This document shows, piece by piece, positions 1 through 14,349 of a stretch of 14,635 nucleotides of DNA. The notes beneath the pieces were generated by a model. It did not search any database, was not told where the DNA came from, and saw only the letters and a program-made list of their open reading frames with translations. The DNA lies in the IMG/VR virus record IMGVR_UViG_2693429762_000010, positions 1 through 14,635 of that record; one strand, given 5' to 3'. Each line of letters begins with the position of its first letter. Within the stretch, counting starts at the first letter, position 1. This DNA comes from a virus. Its lineage: Duplodnaviria > Heunggongvirae > Uroviricota > Caudoviricetes. Made by a program: the position numbers and the translations under genes.

Positions 1-171
1 TCAATAAATCCCATCATTGCGATCAACCTCATCCTTAACCATTGATGCGAGCAGTTCTTCCAGTTTCTGCGCTGATAGCTTTACCTGGTGATCTTCAGCA
101 TCTTCCCGGGCTATTGTGGTTCGCGCAGTGGCTGATTTTGCTGACATCACCACAGGGGGCAGACGGACCAT
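1..171 (-). CDS. hypothetical small protein (48-56 aa; ORF could extend to 282)
   Basis: Minus-strand ORF ending in TGA at 1-3 (window starts on its stop). In-frame ATGs at 145-147 and 169-171, the latter preceded by GGAGG about 10 nt upstream. No recognisable motif; product not recognised. Confidence 0.3.
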   Translation of the reverse strand: MVRLPPVVMSAKSATARTTIAREDAEDHQVKLSAQKLEELLASMVKDEVDRNDGIY

Positions 172-235
172 TGAACCATGGCCTCCGGAACAAATAAGGG
201 CAAAAATAACAACCACTATCGAAAGCTCACAAACT

Positions 236-475
236 AACCGCAGCACGTTCCTGCATACGACGTGTCTGCGGCATAATCCCAATGATTACTCCCTGACAGG
301 ATTTGCAGGCCACTCAATATCAGGTGCAGTTGATGTATCAACACGATTCAACAATACCCGATATTTATTCCATGCCTCCAGCAACGATCTTTCTTCCTCC
401 GTTGCGATTTCCAGATCTACAGCATCCTGCAGTGACGCAATATACTCACTGAATTCCTGGATGTAGAACTGTGTG
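236..475. repeat. direct repeat copy A (3' end of tfa plus downstream stem-loop)
   Basis: About 240 bp aligns by eye with 1284-1524 at roughly 85-90% identity, same orientation. Includes a degenerate copy of the GC-rich hairpin CCGCAGCACG...CGTG(T)CTGCGG. Confidence 0.7.
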
Positions 476-555
476 GTGACGGTCTTCCAGCCATTCGGCT
501 CCTGCTGTATCGAAGCATACCAGGCTATTTCAATATCGCTATGCTGCGGCAGCAT
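286..555 (-). pseudogene. tfa: tail fibre assembly protein C-terminal fragment (tfa', TfaX-like)
   Basis: 89-aa ORF whose last ~55 aa ([48 protein letters not shown]) nearly duplicate the C-terminus of the full Tfa at 1335-1919. The N-terminal ~35 aa are unrelated and the ORF is far shorter than the ~194-aa full protein. Confidence 0.6.
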
Positions 556-582
556 TTAACCCCTTGTAATTCATCGCCATAA

Positions 583-611
583 TTGATTTAATTCACAAAT
601 AAAACTATAAC
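583..611 (+). promoter_or_regulatory. putative sigma70 promoter for the methyltransferase gene
   Basis: TTGATT (583-588), 17-bp spacer, TATAAC (606-611) directly upstream of the ORF. Sequence match only. Confidence 0.3.
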
Positions 612-623
612 ATGGTGAAATCA

Positions 624-1280
624 ATGAAAAAAAACACAGATGATGGGGCTAAAATTTACACACCACTTACCCTAAAGCTTTATGACTGGTGGGTTTTGGG
701 AGTATCAAATCGGCTTGCATGGGGATGTCCTACAAAGGAACACCTTCTTCCACACTTTCTGGAACATGTAGGTAACAACCATCTGGATATTGGTGTTGGA
801 ACTGGGTTTTACCTTACTCACGTACCTGAGAGTAGTCTGATATCTTTAATGGATTTGAACGAAGCTAGCCTGAACGCGGCATCTACAAGGGCTGGGGAAT
901 CAAAAATTAAACATAAAATTAGCCATGATGTTTTTGAACCTTATCCCGCGGCGTTACATGGTCAATTTGATTCCATTTCCATGTTTTACCTTCTTCACTG
1001 CCTGCCTGGAAATATATCTACAAAAAGCTGTGTAATACGCAATGCGGCGCAGGCCTTAACTGACGATGGAACTCTATACGGAGCCACAATTCTTGGCGAT
1101 GGAGTTGTGCACAATAGCTTCGGTCAAAAACTGATGCGCATTTACAATCAGAAAGGCATCTTTTCAAACACAAAAGATTCCGAAGAAGGCTTAACACATA
1201 TACTCTCAGAGCATTTCGAGAATGTTAAAACCAAGGTTCAAGGTACTGTAGTAATGTTTTCCGCTTCAGGGAAAAAATAG
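624..1280 (+). CDS. class I SAM-dependent methyltransferase (YbcY-like by synteny)
   Basis: 218-222 aa ORF on the strand opposite the late genes. Glycine-rich motif I DIGVGTG plus hydrophobic YLLHCLPG block typical of Rossmann-fold SAM methyltransferases. GGTGA 5 nt upstream of the ATG at 624; an alternative ATG at 612 has no SD. Sits between tfa and tfa' as ybcY does in E. coli K-12 DLP12 (from memory). Confidence 0.75.
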   Translation: MKKNTDDGAKIYTPLTLKLYDWWVLGVSNRLAWGCPTKEHLLPHFLEHVGNNHLDIGVGTGFYLTHVPESSLISLMDLNEASLNAASTRAGESKIKHKISHDVFEPYPAALHGQFDSISMFYLLHCLPGNISTKSCVIRNAAQALTDDGTLYGATILGDGVVHNSFGQKLMRIYNQKGIFSNTKDSEEGLTHILSEHFENVKTKVQGTVVMFSASGKK

Positions 1281-1283
1281 CAT

Positions 1284-1524
1284 CCAACCGCAGCACGTTC
1301 TTGCTTAAGACGTGCTGCGGCATAATCCCAATGATTACTCCCTGACAGGGTTCGTAGGCCACTCAATATCAGGTGCAGTTGATGTATCAACACGGTTCAG
1401 CAACACCCGATACTTTTTCCAGGCTTCCAGCAATGAGGTTTCTTCCTCCGTTGCAATTTCCAGATCTGCAGCATCCTGAAGCGGCGCAATATGCTCACTG
1501 GCTACCTGCATCAGGTTGTTTTTT
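1284..1524. repeat. direct repeat copy B (3' end of tfa plus downstream stem-loop)
   Basis: Partner of 236-475; the two copies bracket the methyltransferase gene. Confidence 0.7.
1288..1320. terminator. GC-rich stem-loop between convergent methyltransferase and tfa genes
   Basis: CCGCAGCACGTTCTT / AAGACGTGCTGCGG forms a ~14-bp stem with one bulge and a 4-nt loop, 8 nt after the methyltransferase stop and 15 nt after the tfa stop. No immediately adjacent U-tract on either strand, so terminator function is uncertain. Confidence 0.4.
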
Positions 1525-1919
1525 GTTTCTTCCGCCTCCCGGATCCGGAACATTTTTTCTGCTTCCGTATCCTTCACCCAGGCTGTGCCGTTCCACTTCT
1601 GAAACTCCCCTTCCGGCGATAACCAGGTAACATTTTCCGGTAACGGACCGAGTTCAGAAATAAATAACTCGTCCCCTGACGCTACGTCATAAACCGTTTT
1701 ACCCCGATGGTCTTCAACGAGATGCCACGATGCCTCATCACTGTTGAAAACAGCCACAAAGCCAGCAGGAATATCTGGTGGTGCAATATCGGTACTGTTT
1801 GCTGGCAGACCTGTATGAGGCGGAATATATGCGTCACCTTCACCAATAAATTCATTAGTTCCGGCCAGCAGATTATAAATTTTTATGGTCCGTGCTTGTT
1901 CACTCATTCTGAATGCCAT
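1335..1919 (-). CDS. tfa: tail fibre assembly protein Tfa (lambda Tfa / TfaE / TfaQ family)
   Basis: 194-aa ORF starting [39 protein letters not shown] and ending [11 protein letters not shown], closely matching remembered E. coli prophage Tfa proteins. Its ATG overlaps the stop of the upstream tail-fibre ORF (TAATG). Confidence 0.92.
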
Positions 1920-2850
1920 TATGCAAGCCTCACAATATAGTTAAATGCGATGTTTTTGACGGTGTTTTCCGCGTTACCAGCAGCGTTAACGGTGATGGTG
2001 TGTCCATGTGAACCAATCGCAACGGAGTGCGTATGCGCACCAATACCTACAGTATGTGCATGTGCGCCAGAACTTGCTGCAGTACCAGACAGCGAGTGGG
2101 TATGAGCACCTGCTGACTGTGTCTGAATACGTTGATAATACGATCTACGGGAAGAAGTCCCCGGGCTTACTTGATACTGTGAATCCTGGACATAAGTGAA
2201 CCCACCGCCATCATAAAATGCTAACGCAGAACCGCCGCCTCCTGGCCAACGAATACCATTACCATGAGTATGATCACCGGCAGACCCCGTAGCAAGGTCA
2301 TAGGCTGCCTTTACCGACTTTGGCGTTGCCGCCAGCATTTCAGATGTGCTGTTGGTCGCGTTGCTAAGCTGAACTATCCCTTTCTGTGCTGTCGTTGCAT
2401 CCTGTGCGGTGTATTTCCCGTTAGCCAGCTCATACGCGGCCTTAACGGCTTTTGGCGTTGCCGCCAGTGACTCGGAAGTGCTGTTAGTCGCACTGCTGAG
2501 CTGAACTATCCCCTTTTTCGTCGTGCTCGCATCCTCAAGCGCCACGGCGGATGCAATATCCTCTGCCCGTTTTGCCGCTGTCTCAGCGCGCGTTGCCGCG
2601 GATTCCGCCGTACTTTTGCTCTGAGCTGCCGCCGTCGCACTGCCAGCTGCCTCTGTCGCCTTCGTGGATGCCGTCGTGGCGCTGCCCTTCGCTGCTGACG
2701 CCTGTCTGGTCGCCTCATCTTTTGAAGCAGACGCAGATGATGCCGATGACGCCGCCGAACTGGCGGACGATGCGGCAGCCGTTTTTGAGGATTCTGCGCT
2801 GGTTTCCGACGCTTTCGCGTTCGTCTCGGATGTCTTCGCTGCGGAATCCC
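1919..2850 (-). pseudogene. stf: side tail fibre (Stf) C-terminal remnant, 5' part deleted
   Basis: Frame ends ...[31 protein letters not shown] with the His-rich HTHS repeats and duplicated KGIVQLS(S/N)ATNSTSE motif of lambda Stf. Homology ([12 protein letters not shown]...) runs upstream in-frame to a stop at 2879-2881 with no credible start; the natural N-terminal ~2/3 is missing. Confidence 0.75.
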
Positions 2851-2859
2851 GCTGCTGCC

Positions 2860-2937
2860 TGTGGCGGTGTGAGCCGGATCATTACCGGCAAAAATATGTA
2901 CTTCCGCACGCTGTTCAGTGATGGTTTTCGTCACCAT
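2860..2937 (-). pseudogene. D: head decoration protein D N-terminal fragment (D'), fused out of frame to stf'
   Basis: ATG at 2935-2937 opens [26 protein letters not shown], matching the lambda gpD N-terminus (…GNSDPAHTAT…) from memory. Homology stops after ~26 codons and the stf frame takes over near 2850-2860. Confidence 0.5.
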
Positions 2938-2973
2938 ATTGTTAAAACCTCGTATTGATGTTCAGCACTGACT

Positions 2974-4425
2974 TCATGGCATGGCCATGAGCATTTTCAC
3001 GTCCGCATCACCGTCTTCTGACGCCTGTGACACGCCCCCCTGGACCGCAGCCGGTGAATGGTTCGCCATGAAATGTTCAAACAGGGCGGTTGTGGATGCA
3101 GAGACCGGTTCTGCCTTACCTGATCCCGCAGCCAGCACAGCCCGGGCGCTCTCCACGGTCATTCCCGGGCAGGCAGCCAGCTGTTCAGCCTGCGCCTCAG
3201 CCCCTTTTGCCTCATCCAGGGCCATGATCTGATCACGGAGTGATGGTCCGGCATTCGCCTGCGGTGAAGCAGCCAGGATCGGGCGGGCTTTTTCCACCGT
3301 CATCTCCGGCATCGCCGCCAGCGTTACTGCCAGTTGTTCACGACCGTTCGCTTCTTCACACGCCATAATGCGATCGGCTTCACTCTGCGCGGATGCCACC
3401 GGCTGCTGCGGTGCCGCCGCGGCCAGAATCGCCCGGGCCTGTTCAACGCTCATGCCCTGTTGCCCTGCCAGCATCGTGGCAAGCTGTTCACGTCCTTTCG
3501 CTTCCTGGCATGTCAGGATCCCCATCACTCGCTGGTTCTCCTGCACGGCGGCTTCCGTTGCAGTTAATTGCGGCATAGTGCCTCCTCTGACATTACTGTT
3601 CAGCGCCGTGGCCATCACACTGATGGCATCCGACGCATTGATTAATTCATCCGCCAGCCCGGCCTCAATGCCGGACTGACCTTCAAAAACGGCGGCCTCT
3701 GTTCCCGTGACCGCATCCACAGACAACCCGGTATACATCGCCACTTTTTCGGCAAACATCCGGTGCGCCGCATCAATCCGCTGCTGCATATCCTGGCGAA
3801 CCTCTGCCGGCAACGCTTCAAACTGATTGCCATCCACCTTGTGCGCCCCGGCATAAATCAGCGTGATATCCACACCGGCCTGCGCCAGATGACCGGCATA
3901 GCTGACATGGCTCATCATCACGCCAATGGAGCCGATACGGGATGTCTGGGTAACCAGCCGTCGGGAGCAGGCCGACGCCAGCAGCATGGCTGCAGAACAG
4001 GCCGTGTCATTGCACAGTGCCCAGACCGGCTTCTGCTGACGGAGGCGGTAAATCATGTCAGCGCAGTCAAACGCGCCGGCGGCCTGCCCGCCCGGACTGT
4101 CAATGTCCAGCAGTATGCCCCGCACCTGGCTATCTGCCATTGCCTGCTGAAGACAGGCGACAATGCCGTCATAGCCAGTCATTCCGGAAAATGGCCGCAT
4201 CCCCCCCAGCCGGTGCACCAGCGTGCCGCTCACCGGCAGTACCGCAATACCGTTCACCACCCGGTAAACACGGGCCGGTCGTTTACCTCCGGCCATGTAC
4301 TCGTCCGTTTCAGCCAGCATTCCGGGAGCATCAAGCTGTACCTGCTGTTGTGGTACCGAAAGACTTGCTGCCCCCATCTCGCGCCCGAGCGCGCAAAAGA
4401 AAACCCGCGCATAGCAGGGCCGCAT
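2974..4425 (-). CDS. C: lambda gpC-like head maturation protease/scaffold (S49 ClpP-like), natural N-terminus deleted
   Basis: YARVFFCAL…NGIAVLPVSGTL…GILLDIDSPGG…AFDCADMIYR…PVWALCNDTACSAAMLLASACSRRLVTQTSRIGSIGVMM aligns with remembered lambda gpC, with a repeated C-terminal EEA(K/N)GREQLA motif. Homology begins at YARVFF; the first in-frame ATG (4423-4425) lies in out-of-frame portal-derived sequence, so expression is doubtful. Confidence 0.7.
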   Translation of the reverse strand: MRPCYARVFFCALGREMGAASLSVPQQQVQLDAPGMLAETDEYMAGGKRPARVYRVVNGIAVLPVSGTLVHRLGGMRPFSGMTGYDGIVACLQQAMADSQVRGILLDIDSPGGQAAGAFDCADMIYRLRQQKPVWALCNDTACSAAMLLASACSRRLVTQTSRIGSIGVMMSHVSYAGHLAQAGVDITLIYAGAHKVDGNQFEALPAEVRQDMQQRIDAAHRMFAEKVAMYTGLSVDAVTGTEAAVFEGQSGIEAGLADELINASDAISVMATALNSNVRGGTMPQLTATEAAVQENQRVMGILTCQEAKGREQLATMLAGQQGMSVEQARAILAAAAPQQPVASAQSEADRIMACEEANGREQLAVTLAAMPEMTVEKARPILAASPQANAGPSLRDQIMALDEAKGAEAQAEQLAACPGMTVESARAVLAAGSGKAEPVSASTTALFEHFMANHSPAAVQGGVSQASEDGDADVKMLMAMP

Positions 4426-4552
4426 CGGCACTCTGCGCCGGTGGCAACCACTCCGCCATTTGCCCGCCAAATCCTGCGCCGCCCCCGTTGTAGCTGAGAC
4501 TCTCACGAAGCGGAACGCCGTTCACATCAATCAGGACAGGCGTTCGTTTCAT
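4406..4552 (-). pseudogene. B: portal protein B N-terminal fragment (B'), ~49 codons
   Basis: MKRTPVLIDVNGVPLRESLSYNGGGAGFGGQMAEWLPPAQSADAALL matches the lambda gpB N-terminus (…GGGSGFGGQLRSWNPPSESVDAALL…). Sequence then switches to gpC homology in another frame; start overlaps the W stop in the usual ATGA arrangement. Confidence 0.6.
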
Positions 4553-4755
4553 AACCTCACTCCCAGCGGACGACGGCGACGTCGGGTTGTCCCCAGTACC
4601 GACTCCGCATCATTGATCGCCCGGTTAAGCTCATCCAGAGAAGCCGCCGTATATTCAATTCTGCGACCATCTTTCTGGACAGACACCACCCGTTTACCGG
4701 TTAATAAATCAAGGCGCGCCTGACGCAGCGCCTGTAGTTCAGCGACTGTAACCAT
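4549..4755 (-). CDS. W: head-tail joining protein W
   Basis: 68-aa [42 protein letters not shown]… aligns along its length with lambda gpW (…[23 protein letters not shown]…). Confidence 0.85.
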   Translation of the reverse strand: MVTVAELQALRQARLDLLTGKRVVSVQKDGRRIEYTAASLDELNRAINDAESVLGTTRRRRRPLGVRL

Positions 4756-6379
4756 TCACTCCTCCGGACAGCTTCGCTGCCAGTTCTTTAAGGGTTGGCC
4801 GGGTCGTCTCTTCTTCCCGGGATTTTGCCAGTACAGCCAGATCAAGCTGCCAGCGTTGCACGGACACACGTAATGCCGCGTAGGCATACACCAGGCAGTC
4901 CAGCGCTTCGTTACGCCGCTTTTTGTTATCCCACAGCAGACGCATCTTTCCTTTTTCCCACTTCTCCACAAGCTCTTCCGCGACCAGTTGCTGCGCCTCT
5001 GTCTGCGAAAAAATCTCCGGATCATCAGGAAAACGGATGGCATACGACGTGGCTTCATCCGCAGACGTGGGATCGGCTTTCATACGGGCATAGAGAATTT
5101 CTTTTGCGGTGTCCGTCCCCACTTCACACAGATACACGCCCCGCTGATTGCGGGTTTTCGGCATGGTGATCACCGGCTTGCCATAGACAGATGCGCCTTT
5201 TACCGGCAGCACCCGGAAAACACCGTGTTTTTTTGACCTCTGATAGACAATTTCACCATCGATCCCCCCGGTGTCCCAGCAGACACGGGAAATGGTCATT
5301 TCGGTTCCGTCTGCATGGCAGTATTTTTTGTTGATCGCCGCATCCACACGTAACAGCGTCTCTTCCTCATCGGGACGGCCCATAATGATGATTTTATCCA
5401 CCAGAAAAGCTTCCTCTCCCGGTGCCCATCCCCAGACATACATCTCAAAACGGTTTCGCTGCGAGTCAATGCCCGCCGTCAGATAAACCACCCGGGCTGG
5501 CACCGCCGCCGTGTAATGCACGACCTTATCCATCAGTACCTGGTGATCGAGTTTTTCGCCCACGGCCTCTTCCCAGGTCTCGCCCAGCGTGGTGTTCACA
5601 AAGGTTTTCAGGCCGTTGGGATCTTTCAGTGCATCCAGCCAGTCATAGACTATCTGTACCCAGGTGGTGAACGGACTGTACGCCGTCCAGATATGGAACG
5701 TGATGGAGCGCGGCGGCGGAATTTCATTATCCGCGGCGCTGAAAAACGTCAGACCGTCACGGGTCCACATCCCCGTGTTTTCACAGATCCACCGCCCGTT
5801 GCTCTGGTCAAGCTCAGACTGATGGATCACGCAGCCATGATGTTCACAGAGGTAGAAAACGCTTTCGGGGCTGTCCTTCTCCCATTTAAGGCCAAAAGGC
5901 GTGGATTCATCGCCAAATTTCAGATACTGCTCCTCCCCACAGTGTGGGCAGGGCACATAAAAACGCATGAAATGCGCCGACTCGTTGGCCGCTTTTTCGA
6001 TCTGGCAGGTGCCTTTGATTTTAGGCGTCGAGCCGCGAATGGATTTGGGCCATACAGAGCCCTCAATACGTTTATCCCCAAGCAGGGTTGGCGAACCCTC
6101 TTTTTCGACATCCGGTTCGAACGAGGAAAGTTCGTCATAGCAGACCACGTCCACGGATTTTTCACGGTAGTTTTTAGCGGCAGCCCCGCCCAGGCACCAG
6201 AAGCCCACGCCCGATGAAAAACGTTTCAGCGTGAGGGTATTATCACGATGTTTACGCCCAAACCACGGTGCAAGATCGAGTAAAACCGGCACATCCCTGA
6301 TCGTGGGTTCCACATGAGATTTCATAAAATCTTCAGCAGCAGAACCCCTGACTCTGCCAGGCGGTGATGGTCCTGACAT
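4739..6379 (-). CDS. A: terminase large subunit gpA homolog lacking the N-terminal ~90 residues (Nu1'-'A deletion fusion; probably non-functional)
   Basis: [17 protein letters not shown]…[18 protein letters not shown]…[16 protein letters not shown]…[10 protein letters not shown]…[12 protein letters not shown] closely matches lambda gpA from about residue 95 onward. The N-terminal region, including the Walker A segment remembered near residue 80, is absent. In-frame ATGs at 6379 and 6325. Confidence 0.85.
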
Positions 6380-6422
6380 CAACGCCAAAAATATCGGCCA
6401 GTTTTTTCTTATTGACGTTCAT
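6333..6422 (-). pseudogene. nu1: terminase small subunit Nu1 remnant (first ~26 codons only)
   Basis: ATG at 6420-6422 opens [26 protein letters not shown] (lambda Nu1: MEVNKKQLADIFGASIRTIQNWQEQG…), then runs into a stop after 3 more codons where gpA-homologous sequence begins. Confidence 0.6.
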
Positions 6423-10735: not shown

Positions 10736-12589
10736 TTATGATGATGCTGGTGCATTTATCTCCAGCACCAGACTTTCTATCTCAACGCCATACGCTGCAT
10801 TTTTGGTAATATCCGTCAGCGTCAGCGCATTCAGCCCCAGTGTCAGACTGTCTTTTATGACCTGGAATGCCGGGCCAGCCACTCCATTCAGTTTCGGAGT
10901 AACCGTGGCACTGCCGGCGGTGAACACCAGCTCCAGCGTCTGCCAGTCGTTACTGTAATTCCCGAACTCGCCCAACTTTGTGTTTCCTGCTTTCCTGTGA
11001 TGCATCAGATTCAGTTTGCCGTCTGTGGTCTGGGTGAAGAACGACATCAGGAACGGGTTACCAGTCCCGGTCATCGCCACGACGTCAGGTAACGCTACAT
11101 CGGTATACAGATAAATTCCCAGACCGAACTGGTTGTTGGTCAGTGCGCCTGACAGTCGAAACTTACAGCTCAGTCTGCCACCCCGTGTCAGCAGGGAGAC
11201 TGCGTCATCCACCGGGCGCGTCAGGGACCAGGCTTTATTGCTCTGCTTGGCGATCTTAAATACACCACCCGACAACTGAATTCCGCCGTCCTTAATGGTC
11301 CAGCCCTGCGCAGCAGCCTCTCCGGCTGTCGGCAGCAGGGAGATTGTGCGAACGGACGTATCTGCAGACGGACCCGATGGCGTGTCGCCGCCGGGCGAGG
11401 GTTTGATTTCCGGTGCCTTACCACTGATGAAGGCTGAGGTGCGCCCGGCTACGTTCAGAATAGCAGTTGCCATACGATCGGGAATAATGCCACGACGCGC
11501 CCATGAGCTGAAATGCGTCGGGCGATTTGATGATACCCAGTTTTTGTTCGTTCGGGATGCCGAACCGTAATAACCAGACCCGGCAATATCAGGATCTTCT
11601 GACGGGTTGTTTGTCGGTGTATTAACTCCGCTACCATCGGTCATAAAGGGAACAAAATAAATCTGCTGGGATTCTTTACCTTTATATGCACCATATACCA
11701 CTTCATATTGCGTACCGTGTTCTTGTTTCCACGCGTATGTCGTGTCGCCACAAATCCAGGGGACTGATGCCGGACTTCCACCGTGACACTGCGCTGCCAG
11801 CCCGGCAAGGTCAGCACGGAACTGCTGTACCATTGCAAGAAATGCTGCTGGCTGCTGGGCGTAACTGGCATTCGTCATATCGAATTCCCCCTGCATCCAG
11901 CATATCGCCAGCAAAACGTTTTTCGGGTTTTTCTGCAATGCTGCCTTCGTGCGGAAAAGCAGATCCTGATATAACGGCTTACCCACTCCCCAGCGAGCCG
12001 AATCCTGACTGGCCCCCGTGGACTCGCTGAATGTCCCCTCCGTGCCCTGGGTGAATGCCGAACCACCACGACAGCATGGTACCAGCAGGATCCCCGCATT
12101 ATTAGGGATATACGGAAGCAGTTTTTTGGCAATATGTAAGCCCTGGCCGACACAGCCGTACTGCCCTTTGCTCAGGTCAGCCCGGGGATGGTTAATCGTA
12201 CTCATATCCTGAACATCATGCAGACAATGGTCAGCAGGAATGATGTCGTTAAATACGCATACTTCACCACCGGGAGTCACTGTGTTACGACGGGCCAGTT
12301 GCTTAATGCGCGGATGGGGCGCATCGTATGAATCCGGAAGCGGAAGCCCTTCACCGTAAGCCATGGCATTGGACTGCCCGGCCAGTACGATGACGTAGTA
12401 CCACTCCGGCTCAGTTGCACCACTGACGACCACATCACCTTCTGCTGCAATCGCCTGCATCAGGGTATAAGGGGTTATGGCCACCGGACTACCAAACGGC
12501 TGCCAGCCCTCTTTCAGTTTATGTGTCAGCTTTTCCGCAAGATCTGACGGCGACGCCGCCCTGACAACATCATAGTGTTTAAATGCCAT
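10736..12589 (-). CDS. nanS: prophage sialate O-acetylesterase NanS-p (DUF1737 N-terminal domain plus SGNH/SASA esterase)
   Basis: 617-622 aa. Starts [22 protein letters not shown]…; esterase block [13 protein letters not shown] (GQSN nucleophile motif). Matches remembered NanS-p proteins found between stx/tRNAs and the lysis genes in EHEC prophages. Start placed at the second ATG (GGAAAG SD); the first ATG at 12604 lacks an SD. Confidence 0.88.
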
Positions 12590-12849
12590 GGTTCTTTCCA
12601 CCATCTGAAAAATGATTCTTTAAAATACCTGACATGTAATACAGAAAAAACACAAAACCATACCTTAATTAAAAACCTCATCATCAAGCAGATATGCATG
12701 GATAAACTACAAGACGAGATATAAACCACCCTGCATTTAAATAAACAATAAACAACATCAGAAAAATAATTCTGCTCTATGGTTTACAATCAAAAATATC
12801 ATTTATACTTTTCAGAACATCACCAGCAAGGCATAAACAAGGAAACTAA

Positions 12850-13185: not shown

Positions 13186-13220
13186 GGAGTTTACTCACAT
13201 CTGACAAAATCAATATAAAC

Positions 13221-13240
13221 AGCCCCTCCGGAGAGGGGCT
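13221..13240. terminator. perfect 8-bp GC-rich stem-loop (AGCCCCTC-CGGA-GAGGGGCT)
   Basis: 35 nt after the 111-aa ORF stop. A U-rich tract follows on the minus strand only (GTTTATATTGATTTTG), so it is more plausibly a minus-strand terminator or an RNA-stabilising hairpin. Confidence 0.3.
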
Positions 13241-13632
13241 GGAGAGTGGCGCTATGTGCCATTGCATGGTGCCGGGTGCCTCCCGGTGAATTCAGTACCA
13301 GCACCTGAATCCGCGATTATCCCATATACCTACTCGCTGATTGCCCCTCCGCACAGGGGGATTCACCATGCCAGTTTCTTTTAACAAACTCCCCGCAAAC
13401 CAGACAACAGTCAACCGCCTGAATTGTGAAGTATTTAAAAATTTCTCCCGCTAACTGATACCCGGCTAACAGTCTGGCGTTTTCTTTTTCAGCAACGGGA
13501 AAGCAGCAACCACCACACCCGCCACCAGCACACCGTCAGCCAGCACTGACATTATCCGGCTGCTGCAATGCCATTCACAAAAACAGTAAGCAATCACTTT
13601 TTACCGTAACCGGTGATAATCCAGATATGTAT

Positions 13633-14096: not shown

Positions 14097-14173
14097 TGGC
14101 GCGCTGTACTGGATTCGAACCAGTGACCGATTGCTTAGAAGGCAATTGCTCTGTCCGGCTGAGCTAACAACGC
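14097..14173 (-). tRNA. tRNA-Arg (anticodon UCU)
   Basis: Minus strand GCGTTGTTAGCTCAGCCGGACAGAGCAATTGCCTTCTAAGCAATCGGTCACTGGTTCGAATCCAGTACAGCGCGCCA: 7-bp acceptor stem, D-arm, anticodon loop CUUCUAA, T-loop GGTTCGAATCC, encoded CCA. Resembles argU-type and Stx-phage arg tRNAs. Confidence 0.9.
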
Positions 14174-14273: not shown

Positions 14274-14349
14274 TGGTGGCCCTTGCTGGATTTGAACCAG
14301 CGACCTGGCGATTATGAGTCGCTCGCTCTCACCACTGAGCTAAAGGGCC
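14274..14349 (-). tRNA. tRNA-Ile2 (anticodon CAU, ileX/ileZ-like, reads AUA after lysidine modification)
   Basis: Minus strand GGCCCTTTAGCTCAGTGGTGAGAGCGAGCGACTCATAATCGCCAGGTCGCTGGTTCAAATCCAGCAAGGGCCACCA: full cloverleaf, anticodon CAU. Much closer to remembered E. coli ileX than to elongator tRNA-Met. Confidence 0.88.

Follow-up and report, generated by a model that had tools for sequence, protein, structure and literature searches.

The 14,635-nt stretch of virus DNA analyzed here (the window) carries, near its start, an intact methyltransferase gene set between two tail fiber assembly (tfa) sequences. Judged by its sequence, this region represents the cargo module in the right arm of a lambda-like prophage, and is the same unit as tfaD-ybcY-tfaX in E. 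coli K-12 DLP12. The explanation that best covers the observations as a whole, and that we consider likely, is that a DLP12-type cargo module was imported through tfa 3' ends and can be deleted through them. The methyltransferase gene (624..1280, + strand; 218 aa from the ATG at 624) encodes a class I SAM-dependent enzyme orthologous to ybcY. It lies between full tfa (1335..1919, - strand) and a partial copy, tfa' (286..555, - strand), a layout first read from the sequence by itself and borne out by the open reading frames and alignments.

In the K-12 annotation, the order and strands of tfaD, ybcY, and tfaX agree with those of their counterparts in the window, and the K-12 locus matches the window's methyltransferase DNA with 98.9% identity over 725 nt. 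Annotation and alignments thus agree with the homology to DLP12 proposed earlier, and the likeness extends to internal junctions: the start of tfa', a near-identical spacer, and a hairpin past the methyltransferase stop are common to both loci. They differ in that the window's methyltransferase frame re-translates without interruption to 1280, as had been claimed, whereas K-12 ybcY, named earlier as a pseudogene and indeed annotated as one, aligns with 2 nt missing at the ATG equivalent to 624. The window's tfa' also has a longer 3' end bearing a second hairpin, and downstream lies a DUF4376-type remnant at the ompW site rather than the appY-ompT of K-12. Across five aligned loci (the window, K-12, ev243, Kati, and PhiR26_1), the stretch corresponding to 390-1320, which comprises the tfa' core, spacer, methyltransferase gene, and hairpin, is near-identical, and both flanks are mosaic. 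The gene order in PhiR26_1 is J-lom-stf-tfa-methyltransferase-tfa', and in ev243 a non-tfa tail module still has a second tfa 3' scar next to it.

Full tfa encodes a 194-aa protein (Caudo_TAP, 1.3e-44; phrog_105, 1e-100), annotated as WP_000885580.1 in near-identical genomes, and is a regular member of the Tfa chaperones, which include lambda Tfa and Mu U/TfaMu. It adjoins a remnant of stf, the side tail fiber gene (1919..2845, - strand), recognized by its Phage_fiber_2 repeats and by tblastn with the 991-aa Stf of L001, of which residues 356-542 and 869-991 aligned and no others. The N-terminal 355 residues are missing and there is an in-frame internal deletion, so the prophage is unable to make this fiber. 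On the other side of the module, a remnant of a DUF4376-type tail fiber module gene (1..282, - strand; matches to phrog_7703 and to phrog_1141, a tail fiber protein) runs off the window start and adjoins the right end of the prophage, which is the ompW site in related genomes; RefSeq annotates an identical stretch as a pseudogene beside ompW'. Two tfa-related sequences likewise stand behind one tail fiber gene in the invertible segments of Mu (G), P1 (C), and e14 (P region). The window differs from these in that its repeats are direct, a repeat search of positions 1-3000 returned no inverted repeats, and no invertase lies beside the module in the window or is annotated in the ompW-site loci. 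Phage Kati has an invertase, but it sits beside Kati's own stf-tfa.

Alignment upheld the claim that the methyltransferase gene is bracketed by repeats of the tfa 3' end. The distal copy (236..462) comprises a hairpin and the 3' coding end of tfa', and the proximal copy (1286..1511) a hairpin and the 3' coding end of full tfa, both delimited by repeat search, MAFFT, and blastn. The blastn match joins 236-451 to 1286-1500 (89.4% identity over 216 nt, one gap, E=5e-77), a similarity far beyond chance, and the repeat search pairs 266-462 with 1315-1511 (197 nt, 88%) and 236-264 with 1286-1314 (29 nt, 90%). The offset between copies is 1049 or 1050 because of a 1-nt indel within the hairpin, in agreement with the MAFFT alignment; similarity is weak out to about 475/1524 and absent beyond. 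The sequence-only reading was therefore right about the shared orientation, the degree of identity (88-89%), and the inclusion of the hairpin, and needs correction at the proximal start, which is 1286 and not 1284.

Each repeat does contain the GC-rich stem-loop ascribed to it. The distal hairpin (238..271) has a bulged T and folds at -17.9 kcal/mol on the + strand and -24.1 kcal/mol on the - strand; the proximal hairpin (1288..1320) has a perfect 11-bp stem, with values of -24.2 and -28.5 kcal/mol and a z of about -5. Taken together, RNA folds of the two hairpins range from -18 to -28 kcal/mol, with z from -3.1 to -5.3. A terminator-like site falls within the distal hairpin on the - strand at 255-239, with the tail GTTAGTTTGT. 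Given this U-rich tail on the tfa strand, the late operon probably has its native terminator in the distal hairpin. The proximal hairpin lies 7 nt past the methyltransferase stop and 14 nt past the tfa stop, and so is common to both convergent genes; on the methyltransferase strand it has no U-tract. The methyltransferase stop is followed by a hairpin in all five aligned loci, that of Kati being a variant form.

The 89-codon tfa' frame, of the tfaX type, matches phrog_2341 over its full length (6.5e-60). The conserved C-terminal domain of Tfa occupies its residues 27-89, which share 79% identity with residues 132-194 of Tfa; against the Pfam Caudo_TAP profile the frame aligns with positions 75-130 of 131 only, rather than with the full-length domain. 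This C-terminal domain is a conserved helical trimerization module (PMC9608196), and it is to this module that the repeat corresponds. Residues 2-37, by contrast, are homologous to the N-terminus of phrog_3893; a Klebsiella phage protein of 79 aa, itself a member of phrog_3893, is 53% identical to them over its first 36 residues, and stop codons lie immediately upstream of the tfa' ATG. By these homologies, tfa' is a fusion of the N-terminus of an unrelated small phage gene to the Tfa C-terminal domain, and lacks the fiber-binding N-terminal domain of Tfa. We rejected the possibility that it is a truncated variant Tfa, as its N-terminus belongs to a phrog_3893-type gene. The earlier description of a truncated tfa' hence stands insofar as this is a partial copy of tfa, and fails insofar as it implied plain truncation.

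The same right end also occurs without the methyltransferase gene. About 20 complete genomes have a tfa-hairpin-DUF4376' arrangement, and wherever the flank was read it lies at the ompW site, with a single exception. A synthetic deletion product gave a single contiguous match in four genomes, at the ompW site, with 98.4-99.5% identity. All nine methyltransferase-less alleles sampled have a distal-type hairpin together with the proximal-type state at 346 and 351, and several have tfa bodies absent from methyltransferase-bearing loci. In the window, the distal copy is of the native tfa 3' end type, as in the methyltransferase-less prophages, to about 345 and has the universal tfaX sequence from 346. 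The proximal copy is DLP12-type to about 391-405, with its hairpin and positions 301-306 of the DLP12/PhiR26_1 type. These haplotypes point to recombination as the means of acquisition and to a probable deletion in at least one case, with the join inside the repeat. Such exchange points, along with the 20 or so genomes lacking the gene, fit the earlier proposal of a cassette captured by recombination at the tfa 3' end and liable to loss through the repeats. We would refine that proposal in one respect: the cassette appears to have been imported ready-made from a DLP12-like phage, not assembled in this prophage.

An alternative is that the repeats are passive scars of tail fiber module replacements, that the methyltransferase-less loci are all ancestral, and that the repeats never moved or deleted the cassette. 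We think this unlikely, though several observations fit it. There is more diversity among the methyltransferase-less alleles than among those with the gene, and 8/9 of the former have native D-type bases, or a one-base variant of them, at 301-306; ev243 illustrates how replacement of a tail module leaves tfa 3' scars; and a third tail-module relic, DUF4376', lies downstream in the window. Most methyltransferase-less alleles do look ancestral, and for most of them a history of never having had the gene and one of deletion with a crossover at 307-345 fit equally well. Both copies in the window, however, are recombinant inside the repeat, the distal one passing from native to tfaX sequence after 345 and the proximal one from DLP12-type to native, which implies that the repeat was an exchange site at least once. 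The tfaX 3' end, moreover, exists in three versions joined to three downstream contexts. A further point against passive scars is the allele L016, where the distal hairpin occurs together with DLP12-type GCGT at 301-306. A crossover at 266-300 that deleted the cassette would leave precisely this recombinant, and the Tfa proteins of L016 and of L026, a methyltransferase-bearing locus, are identical. L016, alone among the methyltransferase-less alleles, looks like a true deletion product, and we consider this probable. Differing crossover points might be taken as proof of independent deletions, an argument weakened by L025, a methyltransferase-bearing locus with distal-type bases at 301-306 of its proximal copy: conversion between the copies thus blurs phasing. 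The flank haplotypes have too few variable sites for polarizing events.

Under the model of import and deletion, the direction of individual events is something we infer from these haplotypes. A phrog_3893-type gene would originally have followed the methyltransferase gene and been fused, by an illegitimate crossover, to the tfa 3' end of another phage, leaving two tfa 3' ends in direct orientation. Because tfa 3' ends encode the conserved trimerization domain, they are similar in many lambdoid phages and could act as homology arms. A block consisting of the tfa 3' end, hairpin, methyltransferase gene, and 5' part of tfa' would then have passed from a DLP12-like phage into this prophage family through a pair of crossovers, both within tfa 3' ends, and the reverse, an unequal crossover, would delete it. 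With a PhiR26_1-type donor, the left crossover would have had only about 12+4 nt of perfect identity, so the true donor may be a different allele.

A tandem duplication of tfa in place, followed by insertion of the methyltransferase gene between the copies and decay of the distal one, could also yield direct repeats 1,049 bp apart with no N-terminal domain in the distal copy, but we find this very improbable. The copies are 11% diverged, mostly at synonymous sites (dN/dS 0.12 over 54 codons), which is divergence as working genes rather than decay; they thus appear to be alleles from different phages and not products of an in-place duplication. Their closest relatives also differ, being of the native ompW-phage type for one copy and the DLP12 type for the other. 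In addition, the distal frame takes its 5' end, start codon included, from an unrelated gene, and the methyltransferase gene is conserved at 98% or more, against the 11% difference between the repeats.

Equally hard to credit is a reading of the repeats as two copies of a small-RNA gene, Rfam IS009 (RF02111), whose RNA would be the functional element. Both copies do match the model: with the cut-off at 117 bits, 1378..1576 (- strand) reaches 223.8 bits and 329-532, in the distal copy, falls just short at 113.4 bits. Only the proximal copy thus passes the gathering threshold, and even this does not establish an RNA gene, because the match is sense-strand tfa coding sequence, a location for which others have set IS009 aside (PMC5331693). 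About ten pairs of the model are broken, and not compensated, in the distal copy, and the substitutions follow a codon pattern. In our reading, the IS009 match is a fragment of coding sequence wrongly filed as RNA, and not an RNA gene.

The divergent spacer between tfa' and the methyltransferase gene (556..623) contains two candidate sigma-70 promoters on the + strand, identified by sequence match: TTGATT-17-TATAAC at 583-611, where it had been noticed earlier, and TTAACC-16-CATAAT at 556-583. A Shine-Dalgarno sequence, GGTGA, lies at 614-618. The spacer is near-identical in K-12, where the TTGATT-17-TATAAC site is identical and the same hexamers have been listed for ybcY; the K-12 ybcY spacer also has an in vitro genomic-SELEX peak for RNA polymerase sigma-70 holoenzyme and an H-NS mark (PMC3946193). 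A program promoter scan did not list TTGATT-17-TATAAC and returned no more promoter-like sites than in shuffled sequence. The methyltransferase gene runs counter to the late operon and is probably transcribed from a sigma-70 promoter of its own, bound by H-NS. Translation could begin at ATG 612 or, more likely, at ATG 624, and RefSeq gives a 222-aa protein from ATG 612. The proposed -10 ends at 611, so for its transcript ATG 624 would be the one usable start, preceded by a leader of 5-7 nt.

Lambdoid morons, such as lambda lom and bor, are extra genes with their own promoter and terminator that lie between conserved genes. The methyltransferase gene resembles them in standing on the opposite strand at the end of the late operon, bracketed by a candidate promoter and a hairpin, in having a lower G+C content than its flanks (0.38-0.45 vs 0.46-0.50), and in being present or absent among otherwise near-identical prophages. 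What we observe of promoter and terminator are the candidate hexamers at 583-611, the K-12 SELEX peak in vitro, and a hairpin without a U-tract. Unlike those morons, the gene has about 225 bp of direct homology on its flanks, which gives it a route of transfer and loss by homologous recombination. Of 5,426 complete E. coli genomes, 3,836 (about 70%) carry its DNA, all at 95% identity or more and some in as many as 4 copies; it also occurs in 14 records of lambdoid phages, of which 13 are whole genomes. Orthologs occur in chromosomes across Enterobacterales: homologs in Enterobacter, Erwinia, and Yersinia (56-65% identical) are stand-alone chromosomal genes, and others (68-90% identical) lie in apparent prophage or island cargo regions with DinI, SodC, SopA, and PerC as neighbors. 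A dN/dS of 0.11-0.21 points to purifying selection on the gene. We propose that the gene descends from bacterial chromosomes and is carried as moron-type cargo, placed just past the hairpin that would end the tail fiber operon.

The encoded enzyme has the class I features: a GxGxG motif I (D55-x-G57-x-G59-T-G61) that, with D77, the acidic residue after strand 2, is invariant in 28 homologs, and a seven-stranded alpha/beta fold. Pfam Methyltransf_12, 23, 25, and 11 all score above their cut-offs, and the fold is that of a generic small-molecule methyltransferase. Matches in the PDB were weak only, and identity to the small-molecule methyltransferases compared (juvenile hormone acid methyltransferase, 7ec0; bacterial phosphatidylethanolamine N-methyltransferase, 8ys9; UbiG; BelI/CysG; SgvM) is only 13-21%. 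Named NCBIfam equivalogs scored far under their cut-offs (PmtA, 15.7 of 390 bits; RquA, 16.9 of 175; CpaM, 18 of 180). The substrate in the lysogen is most likely a small metabolite or lipid, probably a hydrophobic one. Alpha/beta hydrolases near the gene in ev243, Erwinia, and Enterobacter were considered as a conserved functional partner and rejected, as they belong to unrelated families with no detectable similarity; no other gene emerged as a conserved partner.

We give almost no credence to a phage DNA methyltransferase serving restriction escape, or to a component of anti-phage defense, even though the gene is phage-borne and has the SAM-binding motif I: it matches no DNA methyltransferase family in Pfam or NCBIfam, 218 aa leave no room for a target-recognition domain, no DNA methyltransferase is among the top 50-60 structural neighbors, PADLOC returned just a marginal partial match to mad2 (E=0.0096, 12.8 bits), and the chromosomal orthologs stand alone in non-phage contexts.

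The ybcY cassette of the window is the intact form of an arrangement already known from E. coli K-12, and its gain and loss are ordinary phage mosaicism. We found no functional study of the ybcY/tfaX methyltransferase in the literature searched, and the frameshifted copy in the laboratory strain may be part of the reason. Matches to tfaX in that literature concern the appY promoter island. A more far-reaching and quite doubtful reading joins two claims, that ybcY is a homology-flanked 'portable moron' passing between prophages of one cell and that it is a true lysogenic-conversion factor. If so, the gene would hop among lambdoid prophages, and be lost from them, by way of RecA or phage recombinases, and its product would methylate a host metabolite or membrane lipid and change fitness or phage susceptibility; because K-12 has a broken copy, ybcY would have escaped notice. 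It is also possible that the chimeric tfa' protein, which is conserved and amounts to a bare trimerization domain, hinders competing phages in assembling their fibers. Neither the spread of the gene nor the linker role of tfa unsettles current views of phage mosaicism. The locus is also a clean natural example of a conserved chaperone domain, that of tfa, acting as a recombination linker through which tail fiber modules are swapped and cargo is carried along.

The methyltransferase gene lies between two same-orientation copies of the tfa 3' end, distal (tfa' side) and proximal (full tfa side). A repeat search of the window returned a 197-nt pair (266-462 versus 1315-1511, 88% identity) and a 29-nt pair (236-264 versus 1286-1314, 90% identity), the two families being parted by a 1-nt indel. 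A MAFFT alignment agreed, and blastn matched 236-451 to 1286-1500 at 89.4% over 216 nt (E=5e-77), with similarity fading out by ~475/1524. As the sequence-only reading had claimed, each copy includes a GC-rich hairpin, here placed at its start (238-271 distal, 1288-1320 proximal). Both hairpins have fold energies of -18 to -28 kcal/mol, well under shuffled controls; on the tfa strand a U-rich tail follows the distal one only, which fits a predicted role of this hairpin as the native late-operon terminator. The full tfa (1335-1919, minus strand; Caudo_TAP, 1e-44) lies to the right of the methyltransferase and tfa' (286-555, minus strand; 89 codons, matching only the last 56 positions of Caudo_TAP) to its left. 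Between them, the methyltransferase ORF (612/624-1280, plus strand), with class I methyltransferase domains, is uninterrupted, as first proposed. RefSeq also has a 45-aa 'hypothetical protein' (WP_001309429.1; 1225-1362, minus strand) that runs over the methyltransferase and tfa stop codons and the hairpin between them; this annotation is probably spurious.

Tfa proteins combine a variable N-terminal fibre-binding domain with a conserved C-terminal trimerisation domain (PMC9608196), and the repeat corresponds to the conserved C-terminal part. The description of tfa' as a truncated tfa copy holds in that it is partial and keeps only this part (residues 27-89, 79% identity to Tfa residues 132-194). 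Mere truncation is ruled out by its phrog_3893-type residues 2-37, which match residues 1-36 of a Klebsiella phage protein (79 aa; a full-length phrog_3893 member) at 53% identity. Because stop codons also lie upstream of its ATG, we infer that in tfa' the beginning of another small gene, along with its start codon, has been joined in frame to a tfa 3' end. This tfaX-type ORF (phrog_2341; compared with L030:3004-3243) has phrog_3893-type sequence in its first ~36 codons and Tfa C-terminal domain in the rest, and it is open in three versions whose 3' ends differ: 61 aa in K-12, 89 aa in the window and 101 aa in phages ev243 and PhiR26_1.

The 54 codons shared by the copies carry 12.5 synonymous and 6.5 non-synonymous differences (dN/dS 0.12), a pattern that rules out a recent duplication in place with later decay. 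Since the ratio is so low, we infer that the copies diverged as working genes in different phages. Rfam IS009 (RF02111) matches the proximal copy (1378-1576, minus strand; 223.8 bits) and, slightly below cut-off, the distal copy (329-532, minus strand; 113.4 bits). These matches are sense-strand tfa coding sequence in which substitutions follow the codon pattern, and IS009 has been left out by others as coding sequence (PMC5331693); the family looks like a tfa coding fragment, not an RNA gene.

The comparison with the K-12 cryptic prophage DLP12 came out as anticipated: tfaD, ybcY and tfaX have the window's layout, and ybcY, annotated as a pseudogene, is 2 nt short at the start codon equivalent to ATG 624. 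Window 390-1320 (tfa' core, spacer, methyltransferase and hairpin) is near-identical in K-12, ev243, phage Kati and PhiR26_1, with both flanks different. PhiR26_1 has the order J-lom-stf-tfa-methyltransferase-tfa'-hydrolase-ompT; ev243 has another, non-tfa tail module, yet keeps a 150-nt tfa 3' scar beside the methyltransferase gene; in Kati, homology stops directly after the hairpin. There (L004, 5670-7500), ~1.1 kb and a DNA invertase gene separate the methyltransferase gene from stf-tfa, a possible remnant of an invertible tail-fibre segment. Methyltransferase DNA is present in 3,836 of 5,426 complete E. coli genomes, every match at least 95% identical, and single genomes hold as many as four copies; plasmids account for nine of the matches. 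Of 40 records sampled at even spacing, 34 have the full 725-nt span and five lack 1-2 nt, four of these being of K-12 lineage. Fourteen phage records carry this DNA; 13 are complete genomes of lambdoid phages and the other is a 1.7-kb fragment.

A synthetic recombination product (window 1-350 joined to 1400-2000) was used as a query and found a contiguous match in four complete genomes (98.4-99.5%), all at the ompW site and all reading stf-tfa-DUF4376' without the methyltransferase; a DUF4376-type relic also lies left of tfa' in the window. The junction query found ~20 genomes of this type. One of them (L035; NZ_CP121356.1, 2846088-2848898) has the tfa-hairpin-DUF4376' right end, without methyltransferase, beside uspF instead of ompW, so this end moves with the phage and is not bound to one integration site. 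Alleles were phased on sites where the window's two copies differ. The nine methyltransferase-less alleles share the distal-type hairpin and, at 346 and 351, the proximal-type state, and at 301-306 eight of them carry the distal-type bases or a form differing by one base; four (L031-L034) have tfa-body haplotypes absent from the homogeneous set of methyltransferase-bearing loci. The window's distal copy is the native (methyltransferase-less) end until ~345 and universal tfaX sequence beyond, and its proximal copy has a DLP12/PhiR26_1-type hairpin and GCGT at 301-306, with native body again by ~406.

On the simplest reading of these junctions, a native stf-tfa-hairpin-DUF4376' prophage would have taken the block running from tfa 3' end through hairpin and methyltransferase to the tfa' 5' part from a DLP12-like phage, by two exchanges both within tfa 3' ends. 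A DLP12-like donor is present in most E. coli by complete-genome count. Capture by recombination at the tfa 3' end, as originally suggested, is thus supported by the mosaic copies and the ~20 methyltransferase-less genomes. The companion suggestion, loss through the repeats, fits one allele: methyltransferase-less L016 joins a native hairpin to DLP12-type GCGT and encodes a Tfa identical to that of methyltransferase-bearing L026, the pattern that a deletion with crossover at 266-300 would give, but the direction of gain or loss is not settled for the other alleles. Conversion between copies is seen in another locus (L025).

For the methyltransferase, ATG 624 is the preferred start codon because the PHROG profile and all homologues start there and GGTGA lies 5 nt upstream. 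The proposed promoter TTGATT-17-TATAAC is present at 583-611 and remains a candidate. The K-12 spacer is near-identical to the window's and identical over both hexamers, and a published listing (PMC3946193) gives these hexamers for ybcY at an RNA polymerase sigma-70 SELEX peak bearing an H-NS mark. The -10 of this candidate ends at 611, so ATG 624 alone would be usable, and the leader would be very short; the other candidate promoter (556-583) would allow a normal one.

Homologues at 68-90% identity (Citrobacter, Salmonella) lie in apparent prophage or island cargo regions, and those at 56-65% (Enterobacter, Erwinia, Yersinia) occur singly on the chromosome in a non-phage context. Four of these homologues give dN/dS values of 0.11-0.21 against the window's gene, with saturation of synonymous sites in the two most distant comparisons. 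The SAM motif DxGxGTG, D77, H101-D102 and an aromatic N-terminal helix (Y20-D-W-W) are among the positions that do not vary. AlphaFold2 predicts the structure with high confidence (pLDDT 90.8), the best sequence-profile match is juvenile hormone acid methyltransferase (E=4e-6), and none of the NCBIfam named families or defence families searched fits. Together these argue that the protein is most likely a cytoplasmic enzyme that methylates a small molecule, a hydrophobic metabolite or lipid. Alpha/beta hydrolases are encoded close to the gene in ev243 (L003:2971-4455), Erwinia (L010:4281-5813) and Enterobacter (L006:7584-8414). They belong to unrelated families, with no similarity detectable between the ev243 and Erwinia proteins, so their proximity to the gene is probably coincidental.

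The window is a defective lambda-like prophage, and in near-identical loci of complete genomes ompW'-yciE-trp adjoin its tfa' end. Of a 991-aa relative, the side tail fibre remnant (1919-2845, minus strand) retains just residues 356-542 and 869-991: the first 355 codons are gone, and an internal deletion that keeps the frame has removed residues 543-868. The remnant directly adjoins the head-protease gene (junction 2846-2974), so the prophage lacks the tail genes and most of the head genes (D to J). Across 2974-6388 (minus strand), the gpA terminase ORF (4739-6388; 549 aa, ATPase domain cut at the N-terminus) and a 68-codon ORF of lambda W size are followed directly by the S49 protease, a head gene (2974-4506; 510 aa), with no full-length portal ORF seen between. 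Also on the minus strand are a 622-aa protein (10736-12604) with DUF1737, SASA (sialate O-acetylesterase-like) and DUF6645 domains, annotated in related prophages as a SASA family carbohydrate esterase, and, at the far end, the prophage sRNA STnc100 (13211-13400; 132 bits) and tRNA genes Arg-TCT (14097-14173) and Met-CAT (14274-14349).

We conclude that the locus is one more example, here intact, of a prophage cargo module that is already known and very common. Unsurprising as such, it is worth noting for its unstudied enzyme and its clear recombination footprint.
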